Of a stretch of DNA of 64,000 nt, positions 39,568 to 63,642 are shown in pieces (the first letter of the stretch is position 1; each line of letters opens with the position of its first letter). Origin of the DNA: an uncultured Planctomycetota bacterium (lineage in GTDB: Bacteria > Planctomycetota > Brocadiia > JAADGH01 > CAYPFP01); assembly GCA_964409935.1 (NCBI GenBank), contig CAYPFP010000003.1, positions 64,230 through 128,229 of the forward strand, in the 5' to 3' direction. A model generated the notes under the pieces. That model did not search any database. It was not told the origin of the DNA and worked only from the letters and a program-made list of their open reading frames with translations. Position numbers and translations under genes: made by a program.

Positions 39568-40785
39568 ATGAGTCGGGAGTTCGAGTTGCTTCTCTGTTGC
39601 GCGCGCACCCGCATCGGCGCCGCAACCCGATCGCGCGCGCTCGGTCTCATCCGCCGGAAGCCCCGCTGGAGCGACTTCCTCAAGCTCGCCGACTGGCACG
39701 GCGTCAAGGCCCTTGTCTTCCATGGTCTGAAGGTCCTCGGACCTGACCGCATCCCGCTCGTTGTCTTCAATCAGTTGGCCGACGCCTTTCTCGAAAACCG
39801 GAAACGCAATGCCTACGTCGCCGGCGAACTGCTTCGGCTGCTGACGCGCCTGGGTACCGCCGGGATTCCGGCCATTCCCTACAAAGGTCCGGCGCTGGCG
39901 TCCCTGGTCTATGGCAAGCTCACTCTTCGGCAGTTCTCCGACCTCGACATCCTGGTGCGAAAGGGCGATGTCTTTCGCGCCGCTGAGATTCTTGCCGACT
40001 GCGGCTATGCGTCCAAGCTCAAGATGACCCCCTCGCAACTGTCCGCCTTCGTGGAGTACCACTACGACGCTCCTTTCTGGGGCGGACCCCAGGGCGGATT
40101 CGTGGAGCTTCAGTGGCGTGTCGCCCCCCGCTTCTTCGGCTTCAACTTCGACCCGTGGGAGCGGCTCGAAACCGTCTCTCTCTACGGAAAAACCGCCAGG
40201 GGCATCCCCGCCGAGGAACTGCTGCTGGTGCTGTGTTTTCATGGCTGTTGGCATCTGTGGGCGCGGTTGTCCATGATCTCAGACGTCGCGGAATTGCTCC
40301 GCTTCCATCCGAAGATGGATTGGGATCGTGTCGAAGGTCTGGCCGCACGATATGGAGGGCAACGGCTCCTGTGTCTCGGCCTGCATCTGGCGCACACGCT
40401 GCTGGAGGTCCCTGTCCCCGACAGAATCCTGACGCTGATTCGGCAGGACTCGCGAATCGGGCCTTTGGCACAGGAAGCCGCGCGATATCTCTCCGAAGCC
40501 GCAGCGCCCGGCCAGTGGCGTACGGCGCTCTTTCACATCCGCGCGCGCGAACGCCTCAGCGACAGAGTCCGCTATGCCCTGGACCTGGCGGTCACGCCGA
40601 CCGTCCTGGACTGGAGGTGGCTCCCTCTACCCGACTTGCTGTTGCCTTTGTACTATCTTGTCCGCCCTGCGCGGTTTGCGGTCCGGCTGACGGCGTCTCT
40701 TGGTTCGGCTGCGCTCTCGCGCCTTGTCCGCGCCCCCCACGTCGGGGCCGCCCCCGACGTCGGGGGCGCTCAGGAGTCATCATGA
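39568..40785 (+). CDS. nucleotidyltransferase-family protein (uncharacterised NTase, PF14907-like); C-terminus encoded by tandem REP-B (RAPHVGAAPDVGG)
   Basis: 405 aa from ATG 39568; family call from overall similarity memory only; 3' end overlaps next ORF start (ATGA). Confidence 0.45.
   Translation: MSREFELLLCCARTRIGAATRSRALGLIRRKPRWSDFLKLADWHGVKALVFHGLKVLGPDRIPLVVFNQLADAFLENRKRNAYVAGELLRLLTRLGTAGIPAIPYKGPALASLVYGKLTLRQFSDLDILVRKGDVFRAAEILADCGYASKLKMTPSQLSAFVEYHYDAPFWGGPQGGFVELQWRVAPRFFGFNFDPWERLETVSLYGKTARGIPAEELLLVLCFHGCWHLWARLSMISDVAELLRFHPKMDWDRVEGLAARYGGQRLLCLGLHLAHTLLEVPVPDRILTLIRQDSRIGPLAQEAARYLSEAAAPGQWRTALFHIRARERLSDRVRYALDLAVTPTVLDWRWLPLPDLLLPLYYLVRPARFAVRLTASLGSAALSRLVRAPHVGAAPDVGGAQESS
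40731..40769. repeat. REP-B iterated palindrome (core CCCGACGTCGGG), 2 tandem copies (first CACGTC variant), at 3' end of nucleotidyltransferase gene
   Basis: 18-nt period; contains GACGTC. Confidence 0.85.
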
Positions 40786-41213
40786 CGAACTCGGCCGTCT
40801 CTCATTCGCGCGCTTCGTCTGAATGGTACAGGAGGTCCCGCTGGGGCGTGCTCTGCCACTATCCGGCCGCGCCGCCGAGCGTCGAGGGAAAGAGCCTGCT
40901 GCCGGCCATGCGCGACCCCGGACAAAAAGTGCGCTACACCCTCTATTTCGCCTACACCGACAAGCACCGGGCCGTGAAAAATCGCCGCCACAAGCTTATC
41001 GAGTACGTCGTCAACGGCAAGCACTCCATGACGCAGTTGTTCGACTTGGCGGAGGACCCCTGGGAACTTCGCAACTTGGCGGCAGACCCCGCCCATGCTC
41101 AAACGAGGGACCTCCTGCGGGCCGAGATGGCCCGCTATCGCGACGCCTGGGACGACGCCGCTTCCCCCTGGGGCGAGACGTTCTGGCGTGTCCTTCGGCC
41201 CCAATGCCCATAG
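40782..41213 (+). pseudogene. sulfatase C-terminal domain remnant (143 aa) with its own SD; N-terminal catalytic domain absent
   Basis: HKLIEYVVNGKHSMTQLFDLAEDPWELRNLAADPAH is the classic arylsulfatase C-terminal motif block; AGGAG 5 nt upstream of ATG; sits immediately after a tandem REP-B. Confidence 0.5.
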
Positions 41214-41224
41214 GAGAACCTGCG

Positions 41225-44143
41225 ATGCCGAAATGCCTCGGCCTCTTGCTCTGCGTCGTGATCGCCGGCTGTGCGGCGCGGCCCTCGCTGTGGGTGGATA
41301 TGGGTCAGCCCAACGCCGAACACGGCCTCGCGGTTCCGTCTGCCGGCGACGGCATGAACGCGCCGGATACCATCGCCGGCCGGCCGTGCCGCCACATCGT
41401 CGGCACCAAGTCCCTCTACCTCTATATCCAGGCCGACGAGGCGTCTGTGCCGCCCGGCAACCACGACGCCTACCTCGCCGTCGAATACTTCGACCGCGCG
41501 CCCGGCGTCGCCAGGGTCGAGTACGACGCGGCCCCGGAGCGCAAGGAACTGAACAGTTGGTACACGACCGCCCCGGACGTCATCGTCATGGTGGGCAGCG
41601 GGCAGTGGCGCCGCGCCGTCGTGCATCTGCCCAATGCCCGCTTCGGCAAGGGCCAAAACCATCGCTCCGACCTGCGCCTGTGCAGCCCCGACATCGCCGT
41701 GGGCCGAATCGAGATCCACTTCTCCAAGCCCGCCGACTACGCCGGCGGCGGCCTTGACCCCGCCCTCGTCGAGAAGGTGCGCGCGCAGATCGGCAAGGGA
41801 ATGGAACTGACCTTCGGGGCCGGCACGGGGGACGTCGGCCTCGGTCTTGCGCAACTGCTTCGCGCCCTGGGCGCCACCAGCGTGGAATCCTACGTCACCT
41901 GGCAGACCGTCGAGGACGGCGGGCAGGGCCGTTGGGACTGGAGCCGCTGGGACCGGCAGATGGACCTCCTCCAGCAGGCGGGCCTCAAGTGGGTGCCCCT
42001 CGTCATTACGGGTCCGGGCTACGCCACGCCGAAGTGGTTCCGGGAATCCGACCGCTCGGTCCCTTACGTCTGTCTGGAGCACGGGCAGCCGTCAAAGATT
42101 CAATCTCTCTGGAACCCGAAGTGGCGCGCCTGGGTGGAGAGATTCCTGCGCGCTTTTGCCGAACGCTACCGCAGTCGCGGGGTGCTCGAATCGGTCATGA
42201 TCGGCATCACGGGAACCTACGGCGAGTCCCTGTACCCCTCCGGACCCGAAACCGGCTGGACGTACAAGATCCCCGGTCCCTTCCACAATCATCTTGGCTG
42301 GTGGGCGGGCGACGCCTTTGCGGTCGCGGACTTCCGCAGGTATTTGCAGAAACGTTACGCCGACGTGGCGGCCCTCAATCGGGCCTGGAACGCCAATGTC
42401 TCCTCTCTTGACGCCGTGACGCCCTTCCTGCCCGACGAGGCCGTTTCGCCCCTCGCCCGACGTTGGGCGCTCGCCCGACGTCGGGCGCGCGCCCGCCTCG
42501 ATCTGGTCAACTGGTACACACAGGCCATGACCGACTGGTCGGTCTTCTGGGTTGCCTCGCTGCGCAAACACCTGCCCGACACGGCCTTCTACCTCAGCGT
42601 CGGCGGCGCGGGCGAGCCGGTCCTGGGCGCGGACTTCTCCGCCATCGCCAAGGCCATCGCCCCTTACGCCGCCGGCATTCGCATCACCAACGAGGCCAGC
42701 GACTACGCTGTCAACTTCACCATCACGCGCGAGGTCGCCACGGCGTGCCGCGCCTTCGGCACGTGTATCGGCAACGCGCCCGACGTCGGGCGCGAACCCG
42801 CCGGCGGCGTCACCCCCGACGGCAACGTGGCGCGTCTCTACAACGCCACGGCCTCCGGCGCGCGACAGCTCTTCTGCTACACCAACAACGTCCTGCAGAA
42901 CGCCGAGGCCATCGCAAGCTTCCGGCAATACGCCCCTTTCCTGGAGCGCCGCTTGCCGCGCGTTCACGCGGCCGTCTACCTGCCCAAGACCGCCTGGGCG
43001 CTGGAACCCGACTCCAGGCAGCGGCTCTTCGCCATCGCGAAACTTCTGCGCGACCGCGCCGACCTGGAGTTCATTGACCGAACGACGCTCGGCGCACCGG
43101 CTTTGCGCGACGTGCGCGTAATGGCCATGGCGGAAGCGCCTTGGGCCGAGGCCGCCGAGATACAGGCCCTGCGCGACTGGGTCGCCGGAGGCGGCGTCCT
43201 GCTGGCGCCCATCCACCCTGATCGCCCCCTGCTCCGCACGCCGGAAGGCAGCCTGGCCGAACGCGACGCCCTCTTTGCCTCTCCGCCCGCCGACGCGCAG
43301 CCCCTGCGCATGACCCTGGACGGCAAGCCGCCGCGACGCTTCAGCCTGCAAATCGGCAAGGACCCCGATGCCGACTTCCTCTTCGGCGACTGGCACAGCC
43401 AGGAAAAAGGCGGCGAGTTCCCGGACCCGCCCGAAGCCACAAAGCGCTGGGGCGGCGCGCGGGCGGGCATTTACCTCCCCTGCGACCCCGCCTCCGACGC
43501 GACACTGTCGCTCCTGGCGTACCTCCACCCCAACTCCCTCCCCGCCGTCGGGCGCTCGCCCAACGTTGGGCGCTCGCCCGACGTTGGGCGCGTCGTCGTC
43601 AACGGCGTGCAGGTGGGAACCGTGGACAAGCCGGGACCGCACAGGTATTCGTTCGCCGTTCCCCGCGCCGTCCTTCAGGGGCGGCCGGTCGCGGAAATGA
43701 CCCTGGAGATAACCACCTTCAAGCCGCAGAACTTCGGCGTGAAGGATTCGCGCGACCTGGGGCTGGGTGTCTGCCTGGTGGAACTCAGCGCCAGGGGGGC
43801 CGAAAACGAGCCGCCCGCCCTTCCCGCACTGCGACCGGAGTTGGACTGGGAATGCCTCTTGCGCGACTGCGTGCGCCGGATCGGCAATGGCGTTACGCTG
43901 GCCGTCCCGTGCCGAACCGCCTACGAGCTGTCTGAGGTGGTCGTGCAGACCCTCGTCCATCCGGAGCGATTCACGCCGGGCGCCAAGGGCATCGTACTGC
44001 CCTCTCCCGCGCGCGACGGCGTTTTTGCGACCCAGTTCGACAAGGGCGTGCTCTTCTACAATGCCAACGCCGAGCCGAAGAGCGCCGACGGCGTAACGGT
44101 GCCTGCTCGCGGCATCGCCTGGAAGGCCGGCGAACGACCATGA
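41225..44143 (+). CDS. lipoprotein, putative glycoside hydrolase with GH42-like TIM barrel; contains three REP-B insertions
   Basis: ATG 41225 with AGGAGAA SD; lipobox VIAGC; SYVTWQTVEDGGQGRWDWSRWDRQMDLLQQAGLKWVPLVITG resembles GH42-type catalytic barrel; 972 aa. Confidence 0.5.
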   Translation: MPKCLGLLLCVVIAGCAARPSLWVDMGQPNAEHGLAVPSAGDGMNAPDTIAGRPCRHIVGTKSLYLYIQADEASVPPGNHDAYLAVEYFDRAPGVARVEYDAAPERKELNSWYTTAPDVIVMVGSGQWRRAVVHLPNARFGKGQNHRSDLRLCSPDIAVGRIEIHFSKPADYAGGGLDPALVEKVRAQIGKGMELTFGAGTGDVGLGLAQLLRALGATSVESYVTWQTVEDGGQGRWDWSRWDRQMDLLQQAGLKWVPLVITGPGYATPKWFRESDRSVPYVCLEHGQPSKIQSLWNPKWRAWVERFLRAFAERYRSRGVLESVMIGITGTYGESLYPSGPETGWTYKIPGPFHNHLGWWAGDAFAVADFRRYLQKRYADVAALNRAWNANVSSLDAVTPFLPDEAVSPLARRWALARRRARARLDLVNWYTQAMTDWSVFWVASLRKHLPDTAFYLSVGGAGEPVLGADFSAIAKAIAPYAAGIRITNEASDYAVNFTITREVATACRAFGTCIGNAPDVGREPAGGVTPDGNVARLYNATASGARQLFCYTNNVLQNAEAIASFRQYAPFLERRLPRVHAAVYLPKTAWALEPDSRQRLFAIAKLLRDRADLEFIDRTTLGAPALRDVRVMAMAEAPWAEAAEIQALRDWVAGGGVLLAPIHPDRPLLRTPEGSLAERDALFASPPADAQPLRMTLDGKPPRRFSLQIGKDPDADFLFGDWHSQEKGGEFPDPPEATKRWGGARAGIYLPCDPASDATLSLLAYLHPNSLPAVGRSPNVGRSPDVGRVVVNGVQVGTVDKPGPHRYSFAVPRAVLQGRPVAEMTLEITTFKPQNFGVKDSRDLGLGVCLVELSARGAENEPPALPALRPELDWECLLRDCVRRIGNGVTLAVPCRTAYELSEVVVQTLVHPERFTPGAKGIVLPSPARDGVFATQFDKGVLFYNANAEPKSADGVTVPARGIAWKAGERP
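42453..42488. repeat. REP-B, 2 tandem 18-mers (GACGTTGGG and GACGTCGGG variants)
   Basis: In-frame in GH42-like gene. Confidence 0.85.
42776..42793. repeat. REP-B, single 18-mer GCGCCCGACGTCGGGCGC
   Basis: Perfect 18-nt palindrome. Confidence 0.85.
43543..43592. repeat. REP-B, ~2.7 tandem copies (CAACGTTGGG / GACGTTGGG variants)
   Basis: Encodes GRSPNVGRSPDVGR. Confidence 0.85.
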
Positions 44144-44637
44144 GGAACATCTGGACGCTTGTACATTTTTTCAGAACCCAGGCGCTGTCCGACCCCGCCT
44201 GCGCGGGATTGGCCCCGCCCTTGCGCGAGGCGCTGGGCTTCCGCCATGTCCTCAGGAATCTGCCCATCGGCGTTCCGCCCGACGGCTTGGCGGACGCGGC
44301 GGCGGAATCGCTGGCGGGCGATTTTGGCTGGGCGTGTCTGAGCGGCGGAGAACGCGCCCGTTTGGAGGAAGCCGTCAAGCGCTGGGAGAAGTCCCGTCCC
44401 GCGCCGACCTCGCCGCCCCCGCCAACCCCCGCTGCGCTCCTCCGCGACCGTTTCCATTGCTTCGGCGGATACACAACCGCTCACACATGCGCCGATTACG
44501 AGCGCGTGATAACGGAGGGTCTCAGTGGGATTCTGCAACAGATAGAGCGCCGCCGGCCGGCGTCGGGGGCACCCCCGACGTCGGGCGCCGACACGACGCA
44601 ACCGTTTCGCCGACCGGAAGTTGGAGAGGACCAATGA
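44140..44637 (+). CDS. hypothetical protein (165 aa); carries REP-B and the 27-nt repeat
   Basis: ATGA overlap with upstream stop and 4-nt overlap with downstream start; no recognisable domain; could be non-coding spacer. Confidence 0.3.
   Translation: MRNIWTLVHFFRTQALSDPACAGLAPPLREALGFRHVLRNLPIGVPPDGLADAAAESLAGDFGWACLSGGERARLEEAVKRWEKSRPAPTSPPPPTPAALLRDRFHCFGGYTTAHTCADYERVITEGLSGILQQIERRRPASGAPPTSGADTTQPFRRPEVGEDQ
44274..44300. repeat. 27-nt exact repeat TCCGCCCGACGGCTTGGCGGACGCGGC (copy 1)
   Basis: Identical to 48735..48761; contains CCGCC...GGCGG inverted repeat. Confidence 0.85.
44557..44588. repeat. REP-B, 1.7 copies
   Basis: In hypothetical ORF. Confidence 0.8.
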
Positions 44638-47069
44638 GCCAACAAGCGATTTCCGCCCGCCAAGCAGTCGGACGGGCCAGGCCGGTCTGGCTGAGCGGCC
44701 GCGAGCGCGAGATGAACGTGCACGCGGGCTTCGTCTGCAGATTCCCGGTCCGGCAGGCGAAAAGCCTCCGCTTCGTCCTCACCGGCTCGACGTTCTACCG
44801 CGTCTTCCTGAACGGGAAGTTTGTCCACTACGGCCCGGCGCGCGGCCCCCACGGCTACGTTCGCATTGATGTGTGCGACCTGACGCCGCACGTGTCCCCG
44901 CCAGACGGACGGGCGGGCGGCGTCGAGGGGGTTATCGCCGTTGAGGTGGCCGGTTATTATTGCAGCAGCTACTACACGATCCGAATCCCGTCGTTCCTGC
45001 AGGCCGAGGTCCTTCAGGACGGGCAGGCGATATGTGCAACGGGTCACGGCGATGCCTTCAGGGCCTTCCCGTTGAAGGGGCGGCTGCAGAAGGTCATGCG
45101 CTACTCGTTCCAGAGGCCCTTCTCCGAGGTGTACGCGCTGGACAACGCCGACCCTCAGGCCCGTTGGACCACGCATCCCGTGCCTGATGCGGAGACGCCG
45201 TCGGTCGTAAGCCCGAACGTGGACTATCTGCCGAGGGAGGTCCCGGCGCCCGCTTTCGACGTGGTCCTGCCGAAGGCCGTCCTCGAGACCGGCGCGGCGT
45301 GCAAGATCAGCCATCCGCCCGGCTTCAAACACGCCTCGCACAGGTTCATTGACGCCATTTCGGAAAACGTACATGGATATCCGCTGACCGACATCGTCCA
45401 GCGGCCTTTCGAGACGCTGCAGGATTACATATTCGCGCCCGGTTCACGCGGTCTGACCGCCGGGCCGCGCAGCGCCGCCGGAGACCTCGACCTGACGCTC
45501 CACGAGGGCGAATACGTCCTTCTGGACATGGGCCTCAACAACAACGGCTTCATCCAGTCCGTCCTCACCGCGCACGAAGACAGCGAGGCGCTTGTATTCT
45601 TCGACGAGAAGCTCATTGACGGTCGCATCCAGCCCAGAAGCTGGTCGTCCGTGAACGTCGTGAAGTACGCGCTGAAGAGAAGCGCCGAGCCTTACGTGCT
45701 GGAGTCGTTCGAGACGTACGGCTACCGTTACATCCAGTACTTTGTGACCAAAGGCAAGGTCACGCTGCGCCGCGCGGCCCTGCGGGAGTATTCGTGCCCA
45801 GAATTCCGGAACACTTCGTTCCAGTGCGAGGATGAAAGGGTCGCCGCCGTGTTTGGGGCGGCGGTGGAGACCTACCGGCAGAACACGTTGGACGTCTTCA
45901 TGGACTGCCCGACGCGCGAACGGGCGGGCTGGCTGTGCGACAGCTACTTCACCGCGCAGTCGGCGCAGTATTTCTCCGGCAACGCCGTGGTCGAGAAGGT
46001 CATGCTGGAGAACTTTGTGCGGGCGAAGGGATTCCCCGGCCTGCCCGCGGGCATGCTGCCCATGTGCTATCCGGCCGACCACCCCAACGGCGTCTTCATT
46101 CCGCAATGGGCCATGTGGTACGTCGTCGAGCTGGAGGGCTACCTCAAGCGCGCCCCCGACGTCGGGGGCACGCCCGACGCCGACAGGGAGACCTTCCGAA
46201 AGGTCTGCCTCGACCTGATCGGGTTCCTGAACCGGTACCGCAACTCGGACGGACTGCTCGAACGCCTGCCAAGCTGGAACTTCGTGGAATGGTCCGACGC
46301 CAACAAGTGGGTCCAAGACGTAAACTATCCCACCAACATGCTTTACGCCAGGGTCCTCGATCTTGTCGGCGATTGGTTCGACCCCGCCCTCAAGGACCAG
46401 GCGAAGGCGATACGGGCGAAGGTCGTCGAACAGTCGTTCAACGGCAGACACTTCGCGGACAACGCCGTTCGACGCCCGGACGGACGCCTTGTCGTCACGG
46501 GCAACGCATCGGAGATATGCCAGTACTTTGCGTTCTTCTTCGGCACGGCCGAGCCGTCCGACAGCCGCTTCGCGCCGCTGGCCGACCTGGTCCTCAACAC
46601 CTTCGGCCCGGAACGAAAGGCGAAGGGCATCATGCCCGAGATCGCATACGCCAACGCCTTCATCGGCAACTATCTGAGAATGGAAATTCTGTTGCGCTGG
46701 CGCCGGTACGACCAGATTATCCGCGAGACCCTCGGCTACTTCCACAAGATGGCCGCGCTCACCGGCACGCTCTGGGAACACGACAGCATCACCGGCAGCC
46801 TGAACCACGGCTTCGCCTCCTATGCGGGCGTCGTGATTATCAAGTGCCTGCTGGGAATACAGGAGATTGACCTTGCGGCGCGCACGGTGACGCTCGACTT
46901 CGGCGACGCCAAGATCGCCGCCGCCGGCGAGGTCGGCACGCCCTTCGGCGCCATCGCGGTGAGGCGCGAGGTCAAAGACGGGAGGGTGCGCATCGAGTAC
47001 TCGGTCCCCAAACAATTCAACTCGCGGATCAGCCTGGCGGCCGATGATATCGCGCTGGTGGAAAGGTAA
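44634..47069 (+). CDS. alpha-L-rhamnosidase (GH78 family)
   Basis: ATG 44634 with GGAGAGGA SD; six-hairpin domain motif FMDCPTRERAGWLCDSYF (GH78 DCPxRER(L/A)GW(T/L)GD); GYRYIQYF; contains one REP-B (APDVGGTPDAD). Confidence 0.65.
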   Translation: MSQQAISARQAVGRARPVWLSGREREMNVHAGFVCRFPVRQAKSLRFVLTGSTFYRVFLNGKFVHYGPARGPHGYVRIDVCDLTPHVSPPDGRAGGVEGVIAVEVAGYYCSSYYTIRIPSFLQAEVLQDGQAICATGHGDAFRAFPLKGRLQKVMRYSFQRPFSEVYALDNADPQARWTTHPVPDAETPSVVSPNVDYLPREVPAPAFDVVLPKAVLETGAACKISHPPGFKHASHRFIDAISENVHGYPLTDIVQRPFETLQDYIFAPGSRGLTAGPRSAAGDLDLTLHEGEYVLLDMGLNNNGFIQSVLTAHEDSEALVFFDEKLIDGRIQPRSWSSVNVVKYALKRSAEPYVLESFETYGYRYIQYFVTKGKVTLRRAALREYSCPEFRNTSFQCEDERVAAVFGAAVETYRQNTLDVFMDCPTRERAGWLCDSYFTAQSAQYFSGNAVVEKVMLENFVRAKGFPGLPAGMLPMCYPADHPNGVFIPQWAMWYVVELEGYLKRAPDVGGTPDADRETFRKVCLDLIGFLNRYRNSDGLLERLPSWNFVEWSDANKWVQDVNYPTNMLYARVLDLVGDWFDPALKDQAKAIRAKVVEQSFNGRHFADNAVRRPDGRLVVTGNASEICQYFAFFFGTAEPSDSRFAPLADLVLNTFGPERKAKGIMPEIAYANAFIGNYLRMEILLRWRRYDQIIRETLGYFHKMAALTGTLWEHDSITGSLNHGFASYAGVVIIKCLLGIQEIDLAARTVTLDFGDAKIAAAGEVGTPFGAIAVRREVKDGRVRIEYSVPKQFNSRISLAADDIALVER
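46150..46184. repeat. REP-B, 1 copy + half-site, in GH78 gene
   Basis: GCGCCCCCGACGTCGGGGGC. Confidence 0.85.
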
Positions 47070-49701: not shown

Positions 49702-51431
49702 GGCGATTTGGCGGGCGAACGCCCGACGTCGGGGGCGCGCCCCTTCATGAAGGCGTCCCAAGCGTCGTTCCTGACGTAAAGCCAGAGGTGGACGTGGGGG
49801 CGCAGGCCGTAACAGCTCGTGCGATACGCGTCATGCAGTCTTGATTCCACTTCGGGCTGGATTCGGGCGGAGACGATGACTACGGCGGCGTCCTTCCCCA
49901 GGTCGTCGGGAACCTTGTTCCAGTAGCCGACCCGCGAGAACTCGCGCAGATACCACGGCAACGGCCAGTAGTCGTCGTCGTGAGCGATGACCTTGATGAG
50001 AATGTTGCGGCCTTCCGGCAAGGCCCGGGCAATCTCCTCGACCCGCGCCACAAGGTGAAGGACGTCTGTGACGGGGTGGGCGTACACGTACGGGTTGCGG
50101 TTGTCGGCATAGTAGATGAAGTTGGCGCGACAGGTCTGCTGGGCAAGATTGTAGAGACAGGCGACCAGGAAGAGTCCGGCGCAGACCTGCGTCGGCCGGT
50201 TGGGCATGGCCTTCAGAATCGCCGCCGCGCCGACGCCGGCCAGCAAGATCATCCCGTGCAGGAAACCCAACATGCACCAGGGGGTCTTGTAGGGGATGAG
50301 CGAGTAGGCCAGCGTCATGAGAAGGGTGTAGACGGCGATGAACCGCAGGAGGGGCGCATGGCCCTCCAAGCCGCTGCTTTTCGCGAAGATCACGACCAGG
50401 CCGGCAACCGCCAGCGCCAGGATGAGCGCCTCGCTCCACCACGGGCCGGGCGCGTATTTTACGTAAAAGAGCAACTTGAGATAGAAATACCACGGGTGGA
50501 GGTGCACTGTGTTTGAGCCGGCCTTGTCGAGATAGCCCGCATAGGCGCGAACGGAGTCCAGCACCCCGGCGGGATTCGTGAAAAAGGAGGAATACAGAAC
50601 GAACGACACCGCACAGGCCGCCGCCAAACCCGCGAGCAGGCCGACCCTGCCGGTCGGCGGGAGCGCGCCTCTCCAGGAAAAAGCGGCGCCCGCATTCCGC
50701 CGCTCTATCCGGCCCGACAACCACGTGACGGCCAAGGCCCCCAGCATGGCGGCGTAGGCGATGATGCACGTCTCCTTGGTGGCGTGCATGAGGCCGAGGG
50801 CTGCGCCGGCCACGACCGCCCACACGACGCGGCGGCTCCTGCCCCCGGGGCAGGCCTGAACGTAGCGCCAACCTGCCGCGATGGCGGCGAAGGTGAAGAA
50901 GACGAGGAGCATCTCCTGGATATAGAAGCGGCTGTAGAAGACCATCGCGGGAGAGAAGGCAGTCAGAAGGGCCGCGCAGACGGCCGCGCCGCGACCGAGG
51001 CCGTCGGCCATAAGCAACATCAACAGCACCACTCCGATGCCAAAGATAACAGGGACGATTCGAAAGGCCCGCTTATCGCACTCGAGCGGGTCGCCGTCGG
51101 ATGCCATCCGCACCGACAGCAACGAAAGGTAATAGAGGCTCGGACCGTGATACTCGACGGGGTCGTAGCGATAGACGCCGGTCTGAGCGAGGTCAAGGGT
51201 CTTGAAGGCCTGGACGGCCTCGTCGCCGTGCAAAGGGCGTTCGCCCAGGCGCGGCAAGCGCAGGGCCGCCGCGGCGGCAACCGCCGTCAGGATGAGAACG
51301 GCAAAAAGGAGTCGCCGAGCCAGGCTTTCCGGCGCGGGGGCCGCGGGGCGATACGACGCACCGAGATTATTCCCGTTGTGCGCGACAGGACCGTCGGAAA
51401 GACCGGGCGCGGTTGTGTGCTGGGCGCTCAA
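49698..51431 (-). CDS. GT39/ArnT-like (PMT-type, GT-C fold) glycosyltransferase; start uncertain; C-terminus carries REP-B (GRAPDVGRSP)
   Basis: ORF 49698..51668 has low-complexity N-terminus; protein must begin before TM1 RRLLFAVLILTAV and loop motif LHGDEAV; only in-frame candidate is TTG at 51429-51431; 12 TM helices. Confidence 0.5.
   Translation of the reverse strand: MSAQHTTAPGLSDGPVAHNGNNLGASYRPAAPAPESLARRLLFAVLILTAVAAAAALRLPRLGERPLHGDEAVQAFKTLDLAQTGVYRYDPVEYHGPSLYYLSLLSVRMASDGDPLECDKRAFRIVPVIFGIGVVLLMLLMADGLGRGAAVCAALLTAFSPAMVFYSRFYIQEMLLVFFTFAAIAAGWRYVQACPGGRSRRVVWAVVAGAALGLMHATKETCIIAYAAMLGALAVTWLSGRIERRNAGAAFSWRGALPPTGRVGLLAGLAAACAVSFVLYSSFFTNPAGVLDSVRAYAGYLDKAGSNTVHLHPWYFYLKLLFYVKYAPGPWWSEALILALAVAGLVVIFAKSSGLEGHAPLLRFIAVYTLLMTLAYSLIPYKTPWCMLGFLHGMILLAGVGAAAILKAMPNRPTQVCAGLFLVACLYNLAQQTCRANFIYYADNRNPYVYAHPVTDVLHLVARVEEIARALPEGRNILIKVIAHDDDYWPLPWYLREFSRVGYWNKVPDDLGKDAAVVIVSARIQPEVESRLHDAYRTSCYGLRPHVHLWLYVRNDAWDAFMKGRAPDVGRSPAKSP
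49719..49742. repeat. REP-B, 1 copy at GT39 3' end / 18 nt upstream of apbE start
   Basis: ACGCCCGACGTCGGGGGCGCGC. Confidence 0.85.
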
Positions 51432-52843: not shown

Positions 52844-54757
52844 CTAATCCAGTCGCCTCGGTTTTCTGACAAACACCCTTCGGAGGGCCGCGCCAAGGCC
52901 GTGCGTCACGAACGTCGCCAGCAGGAGCAGCACAAGGACGCCCGCAACGAGGTTGACCCACGCCCAAACTTTGCGATGGCGGACGGTGGCGTTCAAAGCC
53001 TCCACGTCGCTGAGATTGAAGCCCGCCAGTTCGTGCATGGGCCTGGCCGCAGGCGTTTCGAGCCGGGCCGGCCCCGTCGCCGCGACGTTTCCGAAGAAGA
53101 ACGGCTTCTTCGCCGCGTGGCAGTCCGAGCAGCCGCGCGCGCCGAGCGCCTTGCCGGCCGGGCGAACGTCGTGCGCCACCGGCCAGGCGTACGGGGCCGC
53201 CGCCGGATGTTCGGCGCCGGCCAGCTTGCCGTCGGCGGACTTGCGGTAAATTCTTCCCGCGCACACATAGACAAGCTCGCCGTCGCGCTTCTGACCCGAG
53301 AGGGCCTCGAAAATCTTCAGGACCTGGGCCTCCGCCAGGGGCTTCCAGTCGTCGGCCTTGCCCTCGCTACCGCCCAGCGCCTTGTGAGCCGCCTCGGCCA
53401 CGACGCCGTGGGCCAGCGGGGCAACGGCGTCGCCCTTCATGATACCCCAAAACGCGGGCCAAAGCACCCGGTGAGGCGCGATCTTGCCGTCGGGCAGCCT
53501 CAGGAACACAGGCTCGACGACGAAGGGCGGAACGTCCTCGCGGCGGTGCATGCTCTGAACACCCAGTTCGTGGGCGCGGGCCAGGCGAACGCTGTGGGGT
53601 TGTTCGGCGGGGCGCGCGCCGGAATGGCACGCGGTGCAGGCCAGCTTTTTCATGTGCTCCGGCGGAAAACCCGCGTGGACGGACCTGGGCGCGCCGAGCC
53701 TCCCTACGTCATGGCAGCCCTCGCACGTGAAGGGACGGGCGGACTTGCCGCCCTCGTCGCCGCGCGTCATGGCGTGGTTGAGACCGTTGCGGTGGCAGTC
53801 CGCGCAGGCGATACCCCGCGCAATATGAACGTCCTCATCGGTCTTCCATTCCACGCTATTTTTCATGCCGGCGAGGCGGGCGGAGTGGCAGAAATAACAG
53901 CGGTCGGAGGGCGGCTTGCGGGGGATGTCGAGGAAGACGCGGTCGTTGGCGTCGAACCGCTTGGCGTCGTAGATGACCTTGACGTTGGCGGCGGGGCGCT
54001 CGGCAGCGGCGGGGTCGGCGTCGGCCAGGATGTCGCCTCCGCCGGCGCCGGCGTCCTTGGCCGAACCGCGAACGACGGCCAGACCCTCGGCGGCAACGGG
54101 CGCCCATTTGAAGTTGAGAGCGGCGATCTGCTTGCCCCACTCCGCCTGATCGCGAGCGGCATCCCCGCTGTGACAGCTCATGCAGTCAATCTCAAGCCTG
54201 CCCGAGGTCTTCCACTTGGCCTGCGGGTCTTCAGGCTTCTGGGCGGACAGGTCGGCCAGGCCGCCGCCGGGCGTGTACGGGCCGAAGCGCAACGTGAACT
54301 GCCAGGGCGTGAGACCCGCCTCGGCAGGGCGCCGGGCGTTTGCCCAGGGACGGCTCGACAACGGCAATTGTGTGCCCGACGCGAGGTCCGTGAGGATCCA
54401 CGGCTCGCCGGGCCGGCCCGCGGGCGCGTGGGACTCATGGGCGTTGAAGTGCCAGCCCGACCGGACGCTCGCCAGATCGTGGCATTTTCCGCATGTCCCC
54501 TCCGGCGAGAAAACCCGCGCGTTCTCGCCCTTGGGCGAGATCACCTCGCCCTCCGCGTCGTAAAGCGAGAGGCGATGGACGTAGGCCGCTCGACTGTCCG
54601 TTCGCGCCCCCGACGTCGGGGGCGCCCCCGACGTCGGGGGCGGCGTCTGCGGGGCCTTGCCTTCGGCCCCGCCCGAAGCGGCCGGCGGCACAACACAAAC
54701 GACCCACGCCAGGAAGCCCAGCGCGGCCAGACAGCGTCGGGTGATGTGGCGAGCCAT
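52844..54757 (-). CDS. heptahaem c-type cytochrome with C-terminal membrane anchor; N-terminal region has tandem REP-B (PPPTSGAPPTSGA)
   Basis: ORF trimmed to ATG 54755-54757 with AAGGTG SD; signal peptide; seven CxxCH (CGKCH, CMSCH, CYFCH, CADCH, CEGCH, CTACH, CSDCH); TM VWAWVNLVAGVLVLLLLATFV. Confidence 0.75.
   Translation of the reverse strand: MARHITRRCLAALGFLAWVVCVVPPAASGGAEGKAPQTPPPTSGAPPTSGARTDSRAAYVHRLSLYDAEGEVISPKGENARVFSPEGTCGKCHDLASVRSGWHFNAHESHAPAGRPGEPWILTDLASGTQLPLSSRPWANARRPAEAGLTPWQFTLRFGPYTPGGGLADLSAQKPEDPQAKWKTSGRLEIDCMSCHSGDAARDQAEWGKQIAALNFKWAPVAAEGLAVVRGSAKDAGAGGGDILADADPAAAERPAANVKVIYDAKRFDANDRVFLDIPRKPPSDRCYFCHSARLAGMKNSVEWKTDEDVHIARGIACADCHRNGLNHAMTRGDEGGKSARPFTCEGCHDVGRLGAPRSVHAGFPPEHMKKLACTACHSGARPAEQPHSVRLARAHELGVQSMHRREDVPPFVVEPVFLRLPDGKIAPHRVLWPAFWGIMKGDAVAPLAHGVVAEAAHKALGGSEGKADDWKPLAEAQVLKIFEALSGQKRDGELVYVCAGRIYRKSADGKLAGAEHPAAAPYAWPVAHDVRPAGKALGARGCSDCHAAKKPFFFGNVAATGPARLETPAARPMHELAGFNLSDVEALNATVRHRKVWAWVNLVAGVLVLLLLATFVTHGLGAALRRVFVRKPRRLD
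54604..54641. repeat. REP-B, 2 exact tandem copies in multihaem cytochrome gene
   Basis: GCCCCCGACGTCGGGGGC x2. Confidence 0.9.
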
Positions 54758-56156: not shown

Positions 56157-59100
56157 TTACTTCGCTTTTTCAGGCTGAAGGGGGAAATTTACGCCGGCTG
56201 GCGGCTCGGCCTGGAACTTAAGGCCGTCAATGCGCTTGTCGTTCATATCGCGGAAACGGGCGCAGGCCGACCAATGGCCGCCTCCCTGGGTAATCTTCAT
56301 GAGGAGACAATTCCAGCCCTCCTGGAGCGTGGCGCGGACCGTGTCTTCGCCCGGCTTCGTGGGTCTGGCGACGTTGTTGGCGTGTATGAGTTGCCCGTTG
56401 AGCCAGACCTTCACGCCGTCGTCGCTGCCGATTTCGAGCAGAGCGTCCTGCTTTCTGGGCGCCTGGACATAGGTGCGCAGATAGCCAGCGCAGTTGCTGC
56501 CGCCCAACGCCCTGTCCATCTCGATAAGGCCGGGCTTGGGACCGGCCGGCATCGGCGCCCACTTGGCGTCGGCCGCGCGCCCGACGTCGGGCGAGGGCAG
56601 TTCGGGCGCGAACGCCTTGTCGAACAACTGTGAAGCGCCCATACCCGTCTCCGAGTACGGCCCGGAGACTTGCCAGACGGCGATGCAGTCGTCATAGGTG
56701 GCGCTCGCGCCGAGCACGCCCGCAAGCTGCTTCTTCAAGGCGGCGTCCTTGGTCTCGAGGATGACCCCCTTGAGGGCGAGCTTCGTCTCGGCGGGCCAGG
56801 CGGTCATCGTGGCGCGCGCGATCTGGGGAAGAATCTCGGCCGCCTGGGCGTTGGCGGATTCATCCTTCAGGTCGGCGATGGCGGCGTCGAGGGCCTTGGG
56901 ATCGCCCATGAGCAACACGCCCTGCGGAGAGGCGCCGTCGGCGGCGCCTGCCGCGGGGCAGGCGCGCACGCGCACACAGGCCGCCCACTGGCTGCCGCCC
57001 TGCGTCACCTTGAGCAGCAACGTATTCCATCCCTTCTTCAACGCCACCTCCACCTTGTCGGCGCCGGGCGAACAACTGCGGTTGACGTTCTGGCTGACCA
57101 CGACCTCTTTGTTGAACCAGGCCTTCAAGCCGTCGTCGCTGCCCATCTCCAGACGCGCCTTCTGGTCCTTGTCGGAGCGCACCCACGCCTGCAAGTAGGC
57201 CACGCGGTTGTTGCCCTTGATGTTATCCATCTTGTCCATCTCGATCTTCCACGCCTTGGAACGGTCGGCGCCACCGCTGACGGCCTGCCACTTCACGTTC
57301 TTGGCGTCGGCTTGTTCGGGGGGGAATTCCGTGTCGAAGAGCTTCTTTTCGTTCTTGCGGCCCTCGGAATACGGACCCGACAGCATCCATGCGGTAACGT
57401 AGTCGTCGTACTGGGCGATGCGCTCGAAAGCGGCCTTGATCTGCTTCTGAACCGCCTCGTCCTTGTAGGCGTCGGCGACGGCCTTGAGTTCGGCCTCGGC
57501 CTGCGCGCGATGCTGAAGGCTGACCGGCTCGGCGACCTTGACCAAGGCCAGGACGGTCTCGGCACGGAGGGCTTCGTCGGCCAGCAACGGCCTGAGCAGA
57601 TTGAAGGCGCCGGGGTCCTGCAACTGCGCCACACCCGCGATCACGAGCTTCTTCTCTTCAGGGCGCTGCGCCACGGAGAGGCCGTTTTCCAGCATCTTCA
57701 GCGTCTCTTCGGGAGCGCGATCGCAGGGCAGCCCCACCACGCGCACGTAGCCGCGCAAGGCAAGCACACGGTACTTCTGGTCCTGGGAACTCTTGGCCAG
57801 TTCCAGGAGCGCCGGGGCCGACGCCGCGTCGGGCCAGTCGCACAACGACCGCAGGGCGGCCTCGCTGACCTCCGCGTTCTCGTCCTTGAGACAGGAGAAG
57901 ACCTGGTCGAGCGCCTTCTGCCCGCCGACCATGCCCAACGTGCGAAGCAGCGAGCACTTCACCGGCGGCGTTGCGCCGGCGAAGGCAGCGATGACGGGCT
58001 TCGCCTGGTCCTCGCCCTCCACGCGCTCGCGCCCCGCGCGCTCGCGCCCCGCGCGCTCGCGCCCCGCGCGCAGGCACGTCGCCGCGACGGCCTTCTCGGC
58101 CTCCTTCTGATCCTTGTCCTTCGCCTTGACGAGGATGGCCACAAGAACGGGCAGTTCCTTCTCGTCGGCGAGGTTGGCCAGCGCCTTGAGCGCCTCGACA
58201 CGCACACCGACATCGGCGTCCTCGGCGGATTTCAGGAGCGTCGGCACGACCTTGTCGGACTTGCGGGCGGCCAGGGTCTTCACCAGCTCGATGCGACCGG
58301 CAGGGTCGGCCTCGGACAGGCCCTTGATGATGGCGTCAATCACCCCTTCGCCGGGGATACGCGCGAGCGCGGCGGCTGCCGCGAGTTGCTCGGCCTCCTT
58401 CGTCTTGACCAGGGCCGAGACGAGCGTCCGGCTGGCGGATTCGTCGGCGAGAAGGCCCATGCCCTCGTACGCGGCGATGCGCACGTCGGGAGCGGCATCC
58501 TGGGCGGCCTCCACCAGCGTGGGCACTACGCTCTTGTCGCCCCGGTTGGCCAGCACACGCAGCAACAGGGTCTTGATGTCGGGCGCGCGCCCGACGTCGG
58601 GCGCGGCGCCCTTGACCTGCGCGATGAGCGCCTGGGTCACGTCGTTGCCGGGCATGGTCTGCATGGACGTCATGGCCGAACCGCGAATCTTCATGTCCTT
58701 GTCGGCGAGGGCCTGCAGGAGGGTCGGAAGCTCGGAGATGCCGCCGGCATTGGCTATACCGGCCAAGGCGGCGCACTTCAAGTGCGCCTCGCCGTCGAGC
58801 AACTTCCGGTACATGGCAAGCGCGGACGCCTTATCGTTGTTCGTGCAGAGGGCGTCGGCCAGGACGAGGTAGGAATCGGCGGCGACGGTCCGAGCGCGAG
58901 CGGAACCCTTGGACATGGCCGCGACGATGAGGTCGGTGGAGGCCTTGTCGCCGAGGGCGGCCAGCCCCCTGACGGCGGCGGAGCGCACGGCGTCGTCGTC
59001 ATTGGCGGCGAACTTGGCAAAAACGTCGGCGTTGGCCTTGTCGGTGTGGTAGGCCAAGGCCTGGAGCAGAGCCGCCCGCCACGCGGGGTCCGCCGCCTTT

Positions 59101-60942: not shown

Positions 60943-62208
60943 TTACAACGACCACGGAGCGCGCCGAGGCCGGTCCAGCCAGCGGTTGGCCTCGTCGTCT
61001 CCGATAAACCGTTCCTTTACGGAGTCCCACTTCAGCGGCCGCCTGAGCCAGTAGGCGATATTGCCCAGATGGCAGACAGTCACGGAGCGGCATCCCGTCT
61101 CGACGTCACAGATGGGCCGTTTGCGCGTACGAATGGCCTGGAGCCAGTCGTCATGGTGATTTCGGCTCCTGTAAAGCTGAATCTCGCCCGGTCCGACAGG
61201 CTGCCGAAGTATGGCCTCCGGTTCGGCGCTCAGGTAATTGCGATTGACCTCAATGGCCCCTTCCGTGCCCGTGAAGAGGATTCCTTTTCCCTTGCCGGTA
61301 ACGCCGCCGTGATACACGCGCACGCCGTTGGCGTACGTGAAGGTCAAAAGCTTCACGTCCTTGCCGTCCGGAGGCGCGATCTCAACCGGCCCGCTCTCGT
61401 CCATGCCCATCGCCCACTGAACAATGTCGAAGTGGTGCGAACCCCAGTTCGTCATCTGGCCGCCGGAGTAGTCGCGGTACTCTCGCCACGAATAGGGGTG
61501 GATGCCCTTGTTGAAGGGGCGCCACGGGGCGGGACCGAGCCAAAGGTCCCAGTCGAGTCCGGCGGGCGCAGGCTGCGCCGGCAGATAGCAATCGCGCGAC
61601 GGCCCTCCGACATTCACGTTGGCGCTGACAAGTCTCCCGATGCGCCCGTTGCGGACCCACTCGCAGGCCGTGCGAAAGCCGCTCGAAGACCGCTGCTGGC
61701 TGCCCGTCTGAAAGACACGGCTGTGCCGGCGCACGACGTTCACCATCTCGCGCGCCTCGCGGATGGTGAGAGACATGGGTTTCTCGCAGTAGACGTCCTT
61801 TCCCGCCTTGACGGCGGCGATGCAGTTCAGCACGTGCCAGTGATCGGGCGTCGAGACGACGACGGCGTCAATGTCGGGACGCTCGACCAGGTCGCGGAAA
61901 TCGTTGTAGGCCTCGCAACCCCGATAGTCCTTCACGTGCCGCTCGGCGTAGCGCTCCTCGACGAACTCCTTTGCGGCCGTGCGCTTCCGGGCGTCCACGT
62001 CGCAGACGGCCAGCACGTGCACGTCGGTCCGGCCGAGAAAACTCTTCAAGTGGTTGCCGCCCATGCCGCCCACACCGATAAGGCCGAGTGTAATCCGGCC
62101 GCTCGGCGGCGGCACACCCGCCGCCCCCAGGGCCGAAGCAGGCACAAAGGCCGGCAACGCCAGCACCGACACCGCGTCCTTCAGAAAACCACGACGCGTC
62201 AACGTCAT
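60943..62208 (-). CDS. Tat-exported Gfo/Idh/MocA-family oxidoreductase (tandem paralog 2 of 3)
   Basis: ATG 62206-62208 with GAGGATGG SD; Tat motif TRRGFLKD; C-terminus DDEANRWLDRPRRAPWSL. Confidence 0.65.
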   Translation of the reverse strand: MTLTRRGFLKDAVSVLALPAFVPASALGAAGVPPPSGRITLGLIGVGGMGGNHLKSFLGRTDVHVLAVCDVDARKRTAAKEFVEERYAERHVKDYRGCEAYNDFRDLVERPDIDAVVVSTPDHWHVLNCIAAVKAGKDVYCEKPMSLTIREAREMVNVVRRHSRVFQTGSQQRSSSGFRTACEWVRNGRIGRLVSANVNVGGPSRDCYLPAQPAPAGLDWDLWLGPAPWRPFNKGIHPYSWREYRDYSGGQMTNWGSHHFDIVQWAMGMDESGPVEIAPPDGKDVKLLTFTYANGVRVYHGGVTGKGKGILFTGTEGAIEVNRNYLSAEPEAILRQPVGPGEIQLYRSRNHHDDWLQAIRTRKRPICDVETGCRSVTVCHLGNIAYWLRRPLKWDSVKERFIGDDEANRWLDRPRRAPWSL

Positions 62209-62256
62209 CCGCACCATCCTCAACGAGAAGACGACCGCACGGAGTCCGGCGGGATA

Positions 62257-63642
62257 TCAAAGCGACCACGGGGCGCGCCGAGGCCGGTCCAGCCAACGGT
62301 TCGCCTCGTCGTCGCCGACAAACTGTTCTTTCAGGGGGTCCCACTTCAGCGGCCGCTTGAGCCAGTATGCGATGTTGCCCAGATGACAGACCGTCACGGA
62401 ACGGTGACCGATCTCCACGTCGCAGATGGGCCGCTTGCGCGACTTCACGCACTCGATAAAATCGGCGTGGTGGCCCGGACTCTTGTACAGGTGGATTTCG
62501 CCGGGCCGAGTAGGTTCCTTCATGAGGCCTTCAGGCTCGGTGAAGAGCTTGCCGCGATTAACGCTGATCGTGCCTTCCGTGCCGGTGAACAAGACGCCGC
62601 CCGCCTTCCCCGTGTTGCCGCCGTGGCAAACGGGCACGCCGTTGGCGTACTTGAACGTCAGGAGCTTCACGTCCTTGCCGTCCGGGGGCGTGATGTCGAC
62701 CGGACCGCTGCCGTCCATGTCCAACCCCCATTGGGCGATGTCGAAATGATGAGCGCCCCAGTCGGTCATGCTCCCGCCGGAGTAGTCGCGGAAACTGCGC
62801 CAGGCGAAGGGGTGCAGGGCCTTGTTGTAAGGACGCCAGGGAGCAGGGCCGAGCCACATATCCCAGTCCAGACCTTCAGGGATCGGCTCGGCGGGCAGGT
62901 AGCAGTCGGCCGACGGCCCGCCCACGCTCACGTTCACGCTGACCAGGCGGCCGATACGACCGTTGCGGACCATCTCGCAGGCGAAACGAAACTCGCTCGA
63001 AGAACGCTGCTGGCTGCCGGTCTGAAAGACACGGTGATAGCGGCGAACGGCGTTGGCCAGTTCGCGGCCCTCGCGGATGGTGAGCGTAAGGGGCTTTTCG
63101 CAGTAGATGTCCTTGCCGGCCTTCGCCGCGGCAACACCGATGAGGGCGTGCCAATGATCGGGCGTGCCGATCATGACCGTATCAATGTCCTTGCGGTCGA
63201 GCAGGTCGCGGAAATCGTTGTAGGCCTCGCAGCCCTTGAAGGAGCCGGCGGCGGCGTCCTTGGCGTAACGGTCCTCGACCATCTTCCTGGCTTCATCGCG
63301 CATGGAGGCGTCCACGTCGCAGACGGCGACGACCTGCACTTCGGGCCGGCCCATAAACGCGCCCAGGTTCCCCCTGCCCATGCCCCCGACGCCGATGCCG
63401 CCCATGACGATGCGATCGCTCGGCGCAGGACGGCCGTCGGCGCCCAGAGCAGAGGCGGGAATGAATGCCGGAATCGGCACGGCAGCGGCCGCGGCGAGAG
63501 TGGCCGTCGAAGCAACTGCGGACCTCAGGAAGCCCCTCCGCGAGATGCGGCTTGCCCTGAACGCCCCCGACGTCGGGGGCGCGCCCAGCCCGCCAGACGG
63601 ATGGGCGGGCGGGGGCGAGATTCGTTCAGGGCTTGCGGACAT
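62257..63642 (-). CDS. Tat-exported Gfo/Idh/MocA-family oxidoreductase (tandem paralog 1 of 3); N-terminus has REP-B (GAPPTSGA)
   Basis: ATG 63640-63642 with AGAGAGG SD; Tat motif SRRGFLRSAVAS; C-terminus DDEANRWLDRPRRAPWSL. Confidence 0.65.
   Translation of the reverse strand: MSASPERISPPPAHPSGGLGAPPTSGAFRASRISRRGFLRSAVASTATLAAAAAVPIPAFIPASALGADGRPAPSDRIVMGGIGVGGMGRGNLGAFMGRPEVQVVAVCDVDASMRDEARKMVEDRYAKDAAAGSFKGCEAYNDFRDLLDRKDIDTVMIGTPDHWHALIGVAAAKAGKDIYCEKPLTLTIREGRELANAVRRYHRVFQTGSQQRSSSEFRFACEMVRNGRIGRLVSVNVSVGGPSADCYLPAEPIPEGLDWDMWLGPAPWRPYNKALHPFAWRSFRDYSGGSMTDWGAHHFDIAQWGLDMDGSGPVDITPPDGKDVKLLTFKYANGVPVCHGGNTGKAGGVLFTGTEGTISVNRGKLFTEPEGLMKEPTRPGEIHLYKSPGHHADFIECVKSRKRPICDVEIGHRSVTVCHLGNIAYWLKRPLKWDPLKEQFVGDDEANRWLDRPRRAPWSL
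63562..63584. repeat. REP-B, 1 copy in N-terminus of Gfo/Idh/MocA paralog
   Basis: CGCCCCCGACGTCGGGGGCGCGC. Confidence 0.85.

Follow-up and report, generated by a model that had tools for sequence, protein, structure and literature searches.

How does one short palindrome come to stand in frame in gene after gene of a bacterial chromosome, and in only one part of the stretch surveyed? The question is raised by 64,000 nucleotides of DNA from an uncultured member of the Planctomycetota (contig CAYPFP010000003.1 of assembly GCA_964409935.1, positions 64,230 to 128,229), hereafter the window, which is GC-rich (64-68 %) and shows a strong codon bias. An earlier note, made from the letters alone, had drawn attention to an iterated GC-rich palindrome in this DNA, which it called REP-B. 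Our analysis suggests that REP-B is a young, lineage-restricted miniature palindromic repeat, which would be copied and pasted locally beside short microhomologies by template switching or slippage; we give this reading a probability of about 0.5.

The recurrence of REP-B far exceeds chance, as had been claimed. The 12-mer CCCGACGTCGGG has 11 exact copies in the window against a mean of 0.03 in dinucleotide-preserving shuffles, none of which (0/100) attained 11 copies, and when up to one mismatch is allowed it has 15 matches against 0.88 expected. Two additional degenerate units, at 43559 and 44556, keep the exact 18-nt register and bring the total to 17 units at 11 loci in the range 40732-63580, so that the earlier count of loci stands and its figure of at least 16 copies becomes 17. 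The unit length, given before as 12-18 nt, had to be corrected: the true unit is an 18-nt perfect palindrome, GCSCCCGAC-GTCGGGSGC, which can be written X-X' with X = GCSCCCGAC, and the palindrome reaches 20-22 nt at some loci. Scoring of the 18-mer at every window position gave 14-18 of 18 for the real units, all in register, and at most 14 of 18 for the background; nothing in positions 1-40 kb scored above 14, in agreement with the reported lack of REP-B there.

Tandem pairs spaced by 18 nt had also been described, correctly: head-to-tail arrays at exactly this period are found at five loci (40732, 42453, 44553 and 54606, and 43538 with three units), and the other six hold a single unit. Being a perfect palindrome, the unit has no defined orientation, and its copies fall into two main subtypes, the G/T-type (G/T)CGCCCGACGTCGGGCGC and the C-type GCCCCCGACGTCGGGGGC. 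Sequence conservation ends at the edge of the palindrome, the flanks of the 11 loci having no further sequence in common. As single-stranded DNA one unit folds into a hairpin (stem 7 bp, loop 4 nt; -8 to -9 kcal/mol, z about -3) and the paired units at 54606 into one of -28 kcal/mol (z = -5.3); REP-B has therefore the stem-loop capacity of repetitive extragenic palindromic (REP) elements, at a size slightly under their usual range of 20-40 bp. The 11 loci span 22.9 kb (P = 2.5e-4 for a span this short or shorter if loci were uniformly placed), which amounts to a density of about 480 loci per Mb within 40.7-63.6 kb, or about one locus per 2 kb, and zero in the adjoining 40 kb.

A GC-rich genome with strong codon bias is the kind of background in which composition, chance or an assembly or sequencing artefact might be blamed for such a repeat. 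Against this stand the shuffles, the existence of mutated units, the position of the inserts in frame and in structural loops, and an independent Logan contig (L001, window 54615-58051), which was separately assembled, differs by 2 single-nucleotide polymorphisms and has the same REP-B copies; REP-B is therefore real sequence and not an assembly artefact. These data confirm that it is a genuine DNA-level iterated palindrome, and leave chance or artefact a negligible probability. One end of L001 lies inside the tandem palindrome of the 54606 locus, and the other inside a 15-nt tandem repeat at 58011-58071; perfect palindromes of 36-38 nt can thus coincide with the end of a short-read contig.

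Ten of the 11 loci lie in seven genes and one (44553) is intergenic, in place of the nine or more host coding sequences counted at first. Six are internal to their genes: 42453, 42776 and 43538 in a GH14-like gene, 46152 in a GH78-like gene, and 56577 and 58587 in a gene for a HEAT-repeat protein. Two lie in C-terminal tails (40732 and 49719) and two near the N-terminus (54606, past the signal peptide, and 63563, ahead of a twin-arginine motif). Alignments with orthologs of the HEAT-repeat protein (n = 6, 37-60 % identity), the GH14-like protein (n = 11, 49-62 %) and the GH78-like protein (n = 9, 39-60 %) indicate that the internal copies are true whole-unit insertions. In the HEAT-repeat protein, 58587 adds exactly 6 aa (AAPDVGRAPDIK versus AAPEI------K), and 56577 adds about 5-6 aa (about 15-18 nt) at a site where orthologs already have P-D/E; in the GH14-like protein, 42453 adds exactly 12 aa (36 nt), 42776 exactly 6 aa and 43538 a net 12 aa; in the GH78-like protein, 46152 adds exactly 6 aa. 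Five of the six are insertions of exactly one or two 18-nt units (18 or 36 nt), and at all six loci the insert is absent from every ortholog (6-11 per host) in this comparison, which the earlier note had proposed. New copies evidently arrive, on these alignments, as whole pre-formed units of 18 nt, or 36 nt for two.

The same note had placed the inserts in loops, linkers and termini, and the structural models bear this out. AlphaFold2 models built from the alignments of the GH14-like and GH78-like hosts reached a moderate mean pLDDT of 76.6 and 75.4, and all four loci mapped on them fall in low-pLDDT loops. The 42453 insert (aa 400-411, pLDDT 46-61) lies where a disordered segment passes into a helix, the 42776 insert (aa 508-513) in a loop with pLDDT<50 (aa 505-516), the 43538 insert (aa 762-779) over a pLDDT<50 loop between two strands (aa 765-775), and the 46152 insert (aa 507-512) in the loop that joins helices 490-506 and 518-533, where it partly overlaps a pLDDT<50 segment (509-515). 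Together with the linker and terminal positions of the other copies, this means that surviving copies occupy structurally tolerant sites: surface loops, signal-peptide or linker regions and C-terminal tails. An ortholog of the GH14-like protein with 57 % identity (P0103) has an unrelated 12-aa insertion (KTLSPSSPRPQA...) at the 43538 loop (alignment A2, columns about 818-832), which seems to be a recurrent insertion-tolerant site.

Is it the peptide or the DNA that matters? On a peptide-level explanation, (A/S)PDVG(R/G) would be a selected protein motif, such as a linker, a processing site or a modification site, and the PDVG reading at 7-8 of 10-11 loci speaks for it. Two other loci are translated as PTSG and one as RRR (three reading PPTSGA or ARRRA) and one is untranslated, so the peptide does vary with strand and frame, as had been observed before, whereas the codons are identical at every copy. 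Furthermore, the host proteins, some cytoplasmic, some in the membrane and some exported, have unrelated functions, and a query of 5.8 billion proteins with a synthetic PDVG(R/G) repeat returned only two hits, both unrelated, and no protein family with the repeat; a hit of this search, P0097, was rejected as a relative of REP-B, being encoded by CCAGATGTGGGTGGAGCA-type DNA on AT-richer contigs. The frame bias itself follows from the DNA. Across the whole window there are about 1000 sequences resembling the half-unit (at least 7/9), of which 58 %, 14 % and 28 % lie in gene phases 0, 1 and 2, because GCS-CCC-GAC spells Ala-Pro-Asp in preferred codons. The observed frame use of 7-8 : 1 : 2 fits this availability (P = 0.33 under the availability model), and therefore peptide selection is not needed. 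We conclude that REP-B acts at the DNA level, and that the peptide-level explanation is very improbable and close to refuted.

Nor does the placement of REP-B take account of coding status. With a coding density of 0.949, the finding of 10 of 11 loci in coding sequence is what random placement would give. In addition, the unit consists of six codons, is stop-free in all frames and has G/C-ending codons in two of the three; as it is 18 nt long and stop-free in every frame, insertion of a whole unit never breaks the frame. The selection for frame preservation suggested earlier is thus not needed for each insertion.

An indication of how the copies arrive comes from their junctions. We scored the 9 nt abutting each side of every array (22 flanks) against the half-unit GCSCCCGAC: six of the 22 match at 7/9 or better, against 0.19 expected (background 0.0085 per position, P = 2.5e-8), and four at 8/9 or better (P = 4e-9), and many loci consequently read X-X'-X~. 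The flanks encode residues conserved in orthologs, namely A-P-E-(I/L)-K at 58587, R-A-R-L-D at 42453 and S/T-A-D-A-D at 46152, and the closest ortholog DNA at the 58587 site is GCGCCCGAG, which argues that the half-site pre-dates the insertion; the flank at 42776 reaches only 6/9 and lies inside an invariant E-P-A-G. Inserted copies thus often stand directly next to a half-site that is ancestral. Three other origins of these partial matches were considered and rejected. A target-site duplication does not fit, since flanks depart from the unit at 2-3 of 9 positions and the units themselves are perfect. Decayed tandem units do not fit either, since the flank residues are ortholog-conserved and hence ancestral. 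The formation of a palindrome de novo from the local half-site (X to X-X'-X) fails as a general rule, because the unit is not the mirror of its flank at 46152, 56577 and 42453; at 46152, for instance, the unit GCCCCCGAC-GTCGGGGGC beside the flank ACGCCCGAC is of a canonical subtype. The junctions rather argue for the pasting of a pre-formed unit beside microhomology. It is worth mentioning that a second half-site-like sequence lies close to the 42453 array, in the ancestral LPDE codons (CTGCCCGACGAG) 24 nt upstream of it, and that TRF reports a 27-nt period with 1.9 copies at 42413-42462.

Nearby copies appear to act as donors. Variants are common to neighbouring loci: a GTT variant is found in three units of the GH14-like gene, the 18-mer TCGCCCGACGTTGGGCGC is identical at 42453 and 43574, and all five G/T-type loci are confined to two genes. 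REP-B is limited to 23 kb, even though half-site-like sequences cover the whole window. Beyond the window, a scan for the tandem pattern gave one hit in 185,579 species genomes (596 Gb) and three near-identical contigs in the JGI metagenomes, all rejected as coincidences because their flanks are unrelated (a PTSG-rich linker; YPDVGHFPDVGQ), and an 18-mer scan of the IMG/VR viral contigs gave four singletons only. The contigs of the nearest relatives (55-62 % protein identity; 6.0, 5.5 and 13 kb; 56-66 % GC) hold no REP-B, nor, in their 24.5 kb total, any 12-mer occurring three or more times. On these comparisons REP-B is lineage-restricted, and the near identity of its copies suggests that the family is young. 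A genomic island bounded by a tRNA was considered as the cause of the clustering and rejected, given that the genes are ordinary Planctomycetota genes and that the order HEAT plus Gfo/Idh/MocA is kept in two relatives (L014 and L015). An Rfam scan of the window found only a tRNA, and no RNA family at the repeats. This tRNA gene (37376-37449 on the minus strand, 66 bits) stands some 3 kb to the left of the first copy, close to where the REP-B-free part of the window gives way to the REP-B-rich one. Since the longest mechanically listed open reading frame there (36863-37501) overlaps it, the PCC-domain gene must begin downstream of the tRNA.

How might such copying proceed? While DNA is being replicated or repaired, a growing strand whose end resembles X would pair with an existing REP-B copy, copy X'-X, one or more units of it, and then return to its own template through the same microhomology. 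At a locus that reads X-X'-X, slippage between direct X repeats 18 nt apart could then add or remove units, perhaps aided by the GC-rich hairpin, and would yield arrays of two or three units and permit precise loss. Copies would persist where six or twelve added residues do no harm, and the model requires no host function for REP-B. In support of this idea, template switching at palindromes is an established mutational route in bacteria (PMC7202029, PMC6357072). Several points weigh against it. The mechanism is deduced from how the junctions look at 11 loci of a single 64-kb window, and intermediates, polymorphisms or donor-acceptor pairs were not directly observed among them. At five of these loci (40732, 42776 with its 6/9, 43538, 44553 and 54606) neither flank has a strong half-site; the clustering is open to causes other than local copying; and the adjacency of half-sites would equally fit an enzyme with a preference for CCCGAC-like targets. 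A RAYT, an IS200-like or another hairpin enzyme could act, the survey for transposases spanning the 64-kb window.

On that explanation REP-B would be a minimal REP- or REPIN-like hairpin moved as single-stranded DNA by a tyrosine transposase of the RAYT or IS200-IS605 type, or by some other hairpin enzyme, encoded elsewhere in the genome, and the half-site flanks would reflect its target preference. REP-B is indeed a palindrome that is short, rich in GC and able to form a hairpin. The PVC superphylum contains REP families, and REP copies lying in frame inside genes have been described in Opitutus terrae, Rickettsia conorii and Thauera (PMC3733652); several families may also share one genome, as do REP-B and a second family of the window, REP-A, described below. 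Yet REPs have a GTAG/CGTC tag, are mainly extragenic, often just 3' of open reading frames, and form inverted dimers with spacers, and REPINs are mobilised by RAYTs (Di Nocera et al. 2013, PMC3733652; Bertels & Rainey 2011, PMC3116915), whereas at the 11 REP-B loci no conserved unpaired tag was found, CGTC occurring only within the paired core, the 18-bp unit has no loop, copies are coding in proportion to coding density and arrays are exactly head-to-tail at unit length. Moreover, the similarity of the flanks is long, extending over 5-9 nt, and imperfect, in contrast to a fixed target of 4-5 nt, and Pfam found no RAYT (Y1 transposase) gene or other transposase among the about 40 genes of the window. 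We therefore regard an enzyme-driven origin, the chief rival of our reading, as doubtful, if conceivable. In kind, REP-B is closest to the intragenic REPs of Opitutus terrae, Thauera and Stenotrophomonas, which are also short GC-rich multi-copy hairpins with several families per genome and some copies in frame within genes of known proteins, often at N- or C-termini, single or grouped, and to the Rickettsia palindromic elements (RPEs), but it departs from REPs and REPINs in tag, location and dimer form. RPE-1 is roughly 100-150 bp long and encodes a segment of 30-50 aa. The earlier comparison with RPEs, as something far shorter, was apt: both are in-frame palindromic inserts in many unrelated functional genes, missing from orthologs and lying at structurally tolerant positions (Ogata et al. 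2000, as cited in PMC3733652), but an 18-bp unit adding 6-12 residues, tandem arrays, local clustering and half-site microhomology at the junctions set REP-B apart. Ordinary in-frame tandem repeats (mini- or microsatellites of 3n length) share with REP-B head-to-tail 3n units, a variable copy number and probable slippage, but here one 18-mer, not derived from the locus, recurs at 11 unrelated places. PARCELs (palindromic amphipathic repeat coding elements) consist of units of about 100 nt, forming long repeat domains in surface proteins and spreading horizontally, unlike a 6-codon unit scattered over housekeeping-type genes. Their common trait with REP-B is palindromic repeat DNA translated inside genes (Roeske et al. 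2010, PMC2996958).

Selection for a DNA site is a further explanation, in which REP-B would be a recognition or binding site whose high number is maintained through selection or molecular drive, as has been suggested for HIP1, the uptake sequences USS/DUS, parS and matS. Candidates for its reader would be a methyltransferase or restriction-modification system (GACGTC core; CGACGTCG), a nucleoid or segregation protein, or DNA uptake machinery, and a perfect 18-bp dyad, typical of the sites of dimeric proteins, the very good conservation of the copies and their regional clustering at about one locus per 2 kb would suit it. It accounts poorly for sites that came into being as inserted whole units, often in tandem, and not through substitution, for their lack in 40 kb of adjacent ordinary chromosomal genes and in relatives at 55-62 % protein identity, whose contigs have no over-represented 12-mer, and for the handful of unrelated tandem hits in genomes and metagenomes. 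For the link to restriction-modification raised by the earlier note we found no evidence: Pfam detected no methyltransferase or endonuclease gene, and no cognate gene, in the window, and GACGTC is neither avoided nor enriched outside the element (there are 32 sites, about 21 lying beyond the REP-B units, and a Markov model predicts 37.6), so that avoidance of AatII-type restriction was also rejected. USS/DUS of Haemophilus and Neisseria are oriented and non-palindromic, and accumulate genome-wide by substitution and recombination; they resemble REP-B as dense short intragenic motifs enriched in tolerant frames and at poorly conserved protein positions, but differ from it in that REP-B is inserted as a unit. 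The likeness to HIP1 (highly iterated palindrome 1), also proposed before, does not hold either. Like REP-B, HIP1 is a short, perfect and hugely over-represented palindrome that turns up in every reading frame as well as in non-coding DNA. It is, however, a genome-wide 8-mer with hundreds to thousands of sites per Mb. It is linked to orphan methyltransferases, its sites are conserved in place between genomes without change of length (PMC4390886, PMC5861425), and one published model derives it from biased mutation together with mismatch repair (PMC4390886). REP-B, by contrast, is an 18-mer that is inserted, forms tandem arrays, clusters regionally and is missing from all relatives examined, of which the closest compared are only 55-62 % identical. 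Taken together, we consider a selected DNA site quite unlikely.

Three features of REP-B, all of them resting on one 64-kb window, are new: a minimal unit that is compatible with coding, tandem arrays made of exact units, and the rule of a half-site at the junction, which possibly points to enzyme-free spread. A bolder proposal, which we put forward tentatively and which may well prove wrong, is that REP-B and REP-A represent transposase-free, coding-compatible selfish micro-elements, perfect palindromes of 3n length spreading in cis by microhomology-primed template switching. Such elements would be stop-free in every frame, expand and excise by slippage, colonise genes over intergenic DNA and seed six-residue protein loops. 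Annotation pipelines and repeat finders tuned to extragenic REPs or to long miniature inverted-repeat transposable elements would overlook repeats such as REP-B. Should the junction rule hold genome-wide, it would offer a concrete route for short palindromes to multiply without a transposase, and REP-B would, if so, naturally supply proteins with small insertions in loops.

The loci and their abutting half-sites are listed in Table 1. Genes in the window were called from third-position GC content and Pfam; those labelled in the region are NTP_transf_5, the GH14/GH42-like lipoprotein, the GH78-like protein (Bac_rhamnosid6H), EamA, HAD, ApbE, PMT (GT39), an F5/8-type C domain protein, cytochrome b561, multihaem cytochrome c and the HEAT-repeat protein, and the named homologs come from metagenome-assembled genomes of Planctomycetota. 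The labels given before were essentially right, with the difference that the protein called GH42-like is closer to GH14.

Table 1. REP-B loci and adjoining half-sites, in window coordinates
Position	Feature	Gene or context	Reading or remark
40732..40767	tandem pair GCCCCCCACGTCGGGGCC + GCCCCCGACGTCGGGGGC	last 18 codons of NTP_transf_5 gene 39520-40785 (+)	APHVGAAPDVGG
42453..42488	tandem pair TCGCCCGACGTTGGGCGC + TCGCCCGACGTCGGGCGC	GH14/GH42-like lipoprotein gene 41255-44143 (+)	Arg-rich frame LARRWALARRRA
42489-42497	9-mer GCGCCCGCC abutting 42453 array	within conserved RARLD codons	8/9 half-site, ancestral
42776..42793	single canonical G-type unit GCGCCCGACGTCGGGCGC	GH14-like gene, between ...GN and conserved EPAG	APDVGR
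43538..43591	three tandem units	GH14-like gene	LPAVGR SPNVGR SPDVGR; GTT variant as at 42453
44553..44588	tandem pair, one unit degenerate	intergenic, 46-81 nt upstream of GH78-like start codon 44634	
46152..46169	single canonical C-type unit GCCCCCGACGTCGGGGGC	GH78-like gene 44634-47069 (+)	APDVGG
46170-46178	ACGCCCGAC abutting 46152 unit	orthologs S/T-A-D-A-D	8/9 half-site, ancestral
49710-49718	9-mer abutting 49719 unit		7/9 half-site
49719..49736	single unit	last 12 codons of PMT/GT39-like gene 49698-51668 (-)	APDVGR
54606..54641	two perfect C-type units	multihaem cytochrome c gene 52844-54760 (-), post-signal-peptide linker	PPTSGAPPTSGA
56568-56576	GCGGCCGAC in gene orientation, abutting 56577 unit		8/9 half-site
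56577..56594	single unit	HEAT-repeat protein gene 56157-59633/59723 (-)	SPDVGR; also in contig L001
58578-58586	GCGCCCGAC abutting 58587 unit		APD; perfect 9/9 half-site; locus = X-X'-X
58587..58604	single canonical G-type unit	HEAT-repeat gene	APDVGR
63563..63580	single canonical C-type unit	N-terminal extension of third Gfo/Idh/MocA paralog 62257-63666 (-)	PPTSGA
63581-63589	GCGCCCAGC abutting 63563 unit		7/9 half-site

Some of these positions deserve a comment. The Pfam domain of the NTP_transf_5 protein stops at aa 295 of 421, well before the 40732 pair. The start codon of the GH78-like gene downstream of the intergenic pair is backed by the N-termini of orthologs (alignment A3). The 49719 unit also precedes the ApbE start at 49701 by 18-35 nt, and the 54606 pair forms a 38-nt perfect palindrome (54605-54642). 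The 63563 unit is upstream of the twin-arginine motif of its protein, and there is no ATG, GTG or TTG in the sequence between the unit and the RRGFL motif. That paralog is one of four Gfo/Idh/MocA genes with N-termini of the twin-arginine type (54763-56106, 59650-60936, 60943-62223 and 62257-63666), three of them in tandem. Upstream of the genes for the GH14-like lipoprotein and the GH78-like protein lie unusually long non-coding spacers (40786-41254 and 44144-44633, about 470-490 nt) in an otherwise 95 % coding region, the second of which has the REP-B pair. The mechanically listed open reading frame 40823-44143 would give the lipoprotein an implausible N-terminal extension of 144 aa ahead of its signal peptide.

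Two further iterated repeats were found in the window. REP-A has a 21-nt unit, CGCCGCGTCGCTGGTACGACG, with 7-bp inverted arms (CGCGTCG/CGACGCG) and a 6-nt loop, at 2962-3003, 3499-3519, 11210-11251, 13164-13184 and 29895-29936, with remnants at 47970 and 48723; its territory is thus 3-30 kb, where REP-B is absent. Like REP-B, it occurs as tandem pairs or singles of 3n length within open reading frames, its arrays again finishing with an extra half unit, and it is read AARRTSD or RRWYDAP in GH67N/DUF4838, GH116, BNR and other genes. The third, in-frame tandem repeat is the one at 58011-58071 (15 nt x 4.1, CTCGCGCCCCGCGCG), which encodes (GRERA)n in the HEAT-repeat protein and is an insertion with respect to all orthologs in alignment A1.

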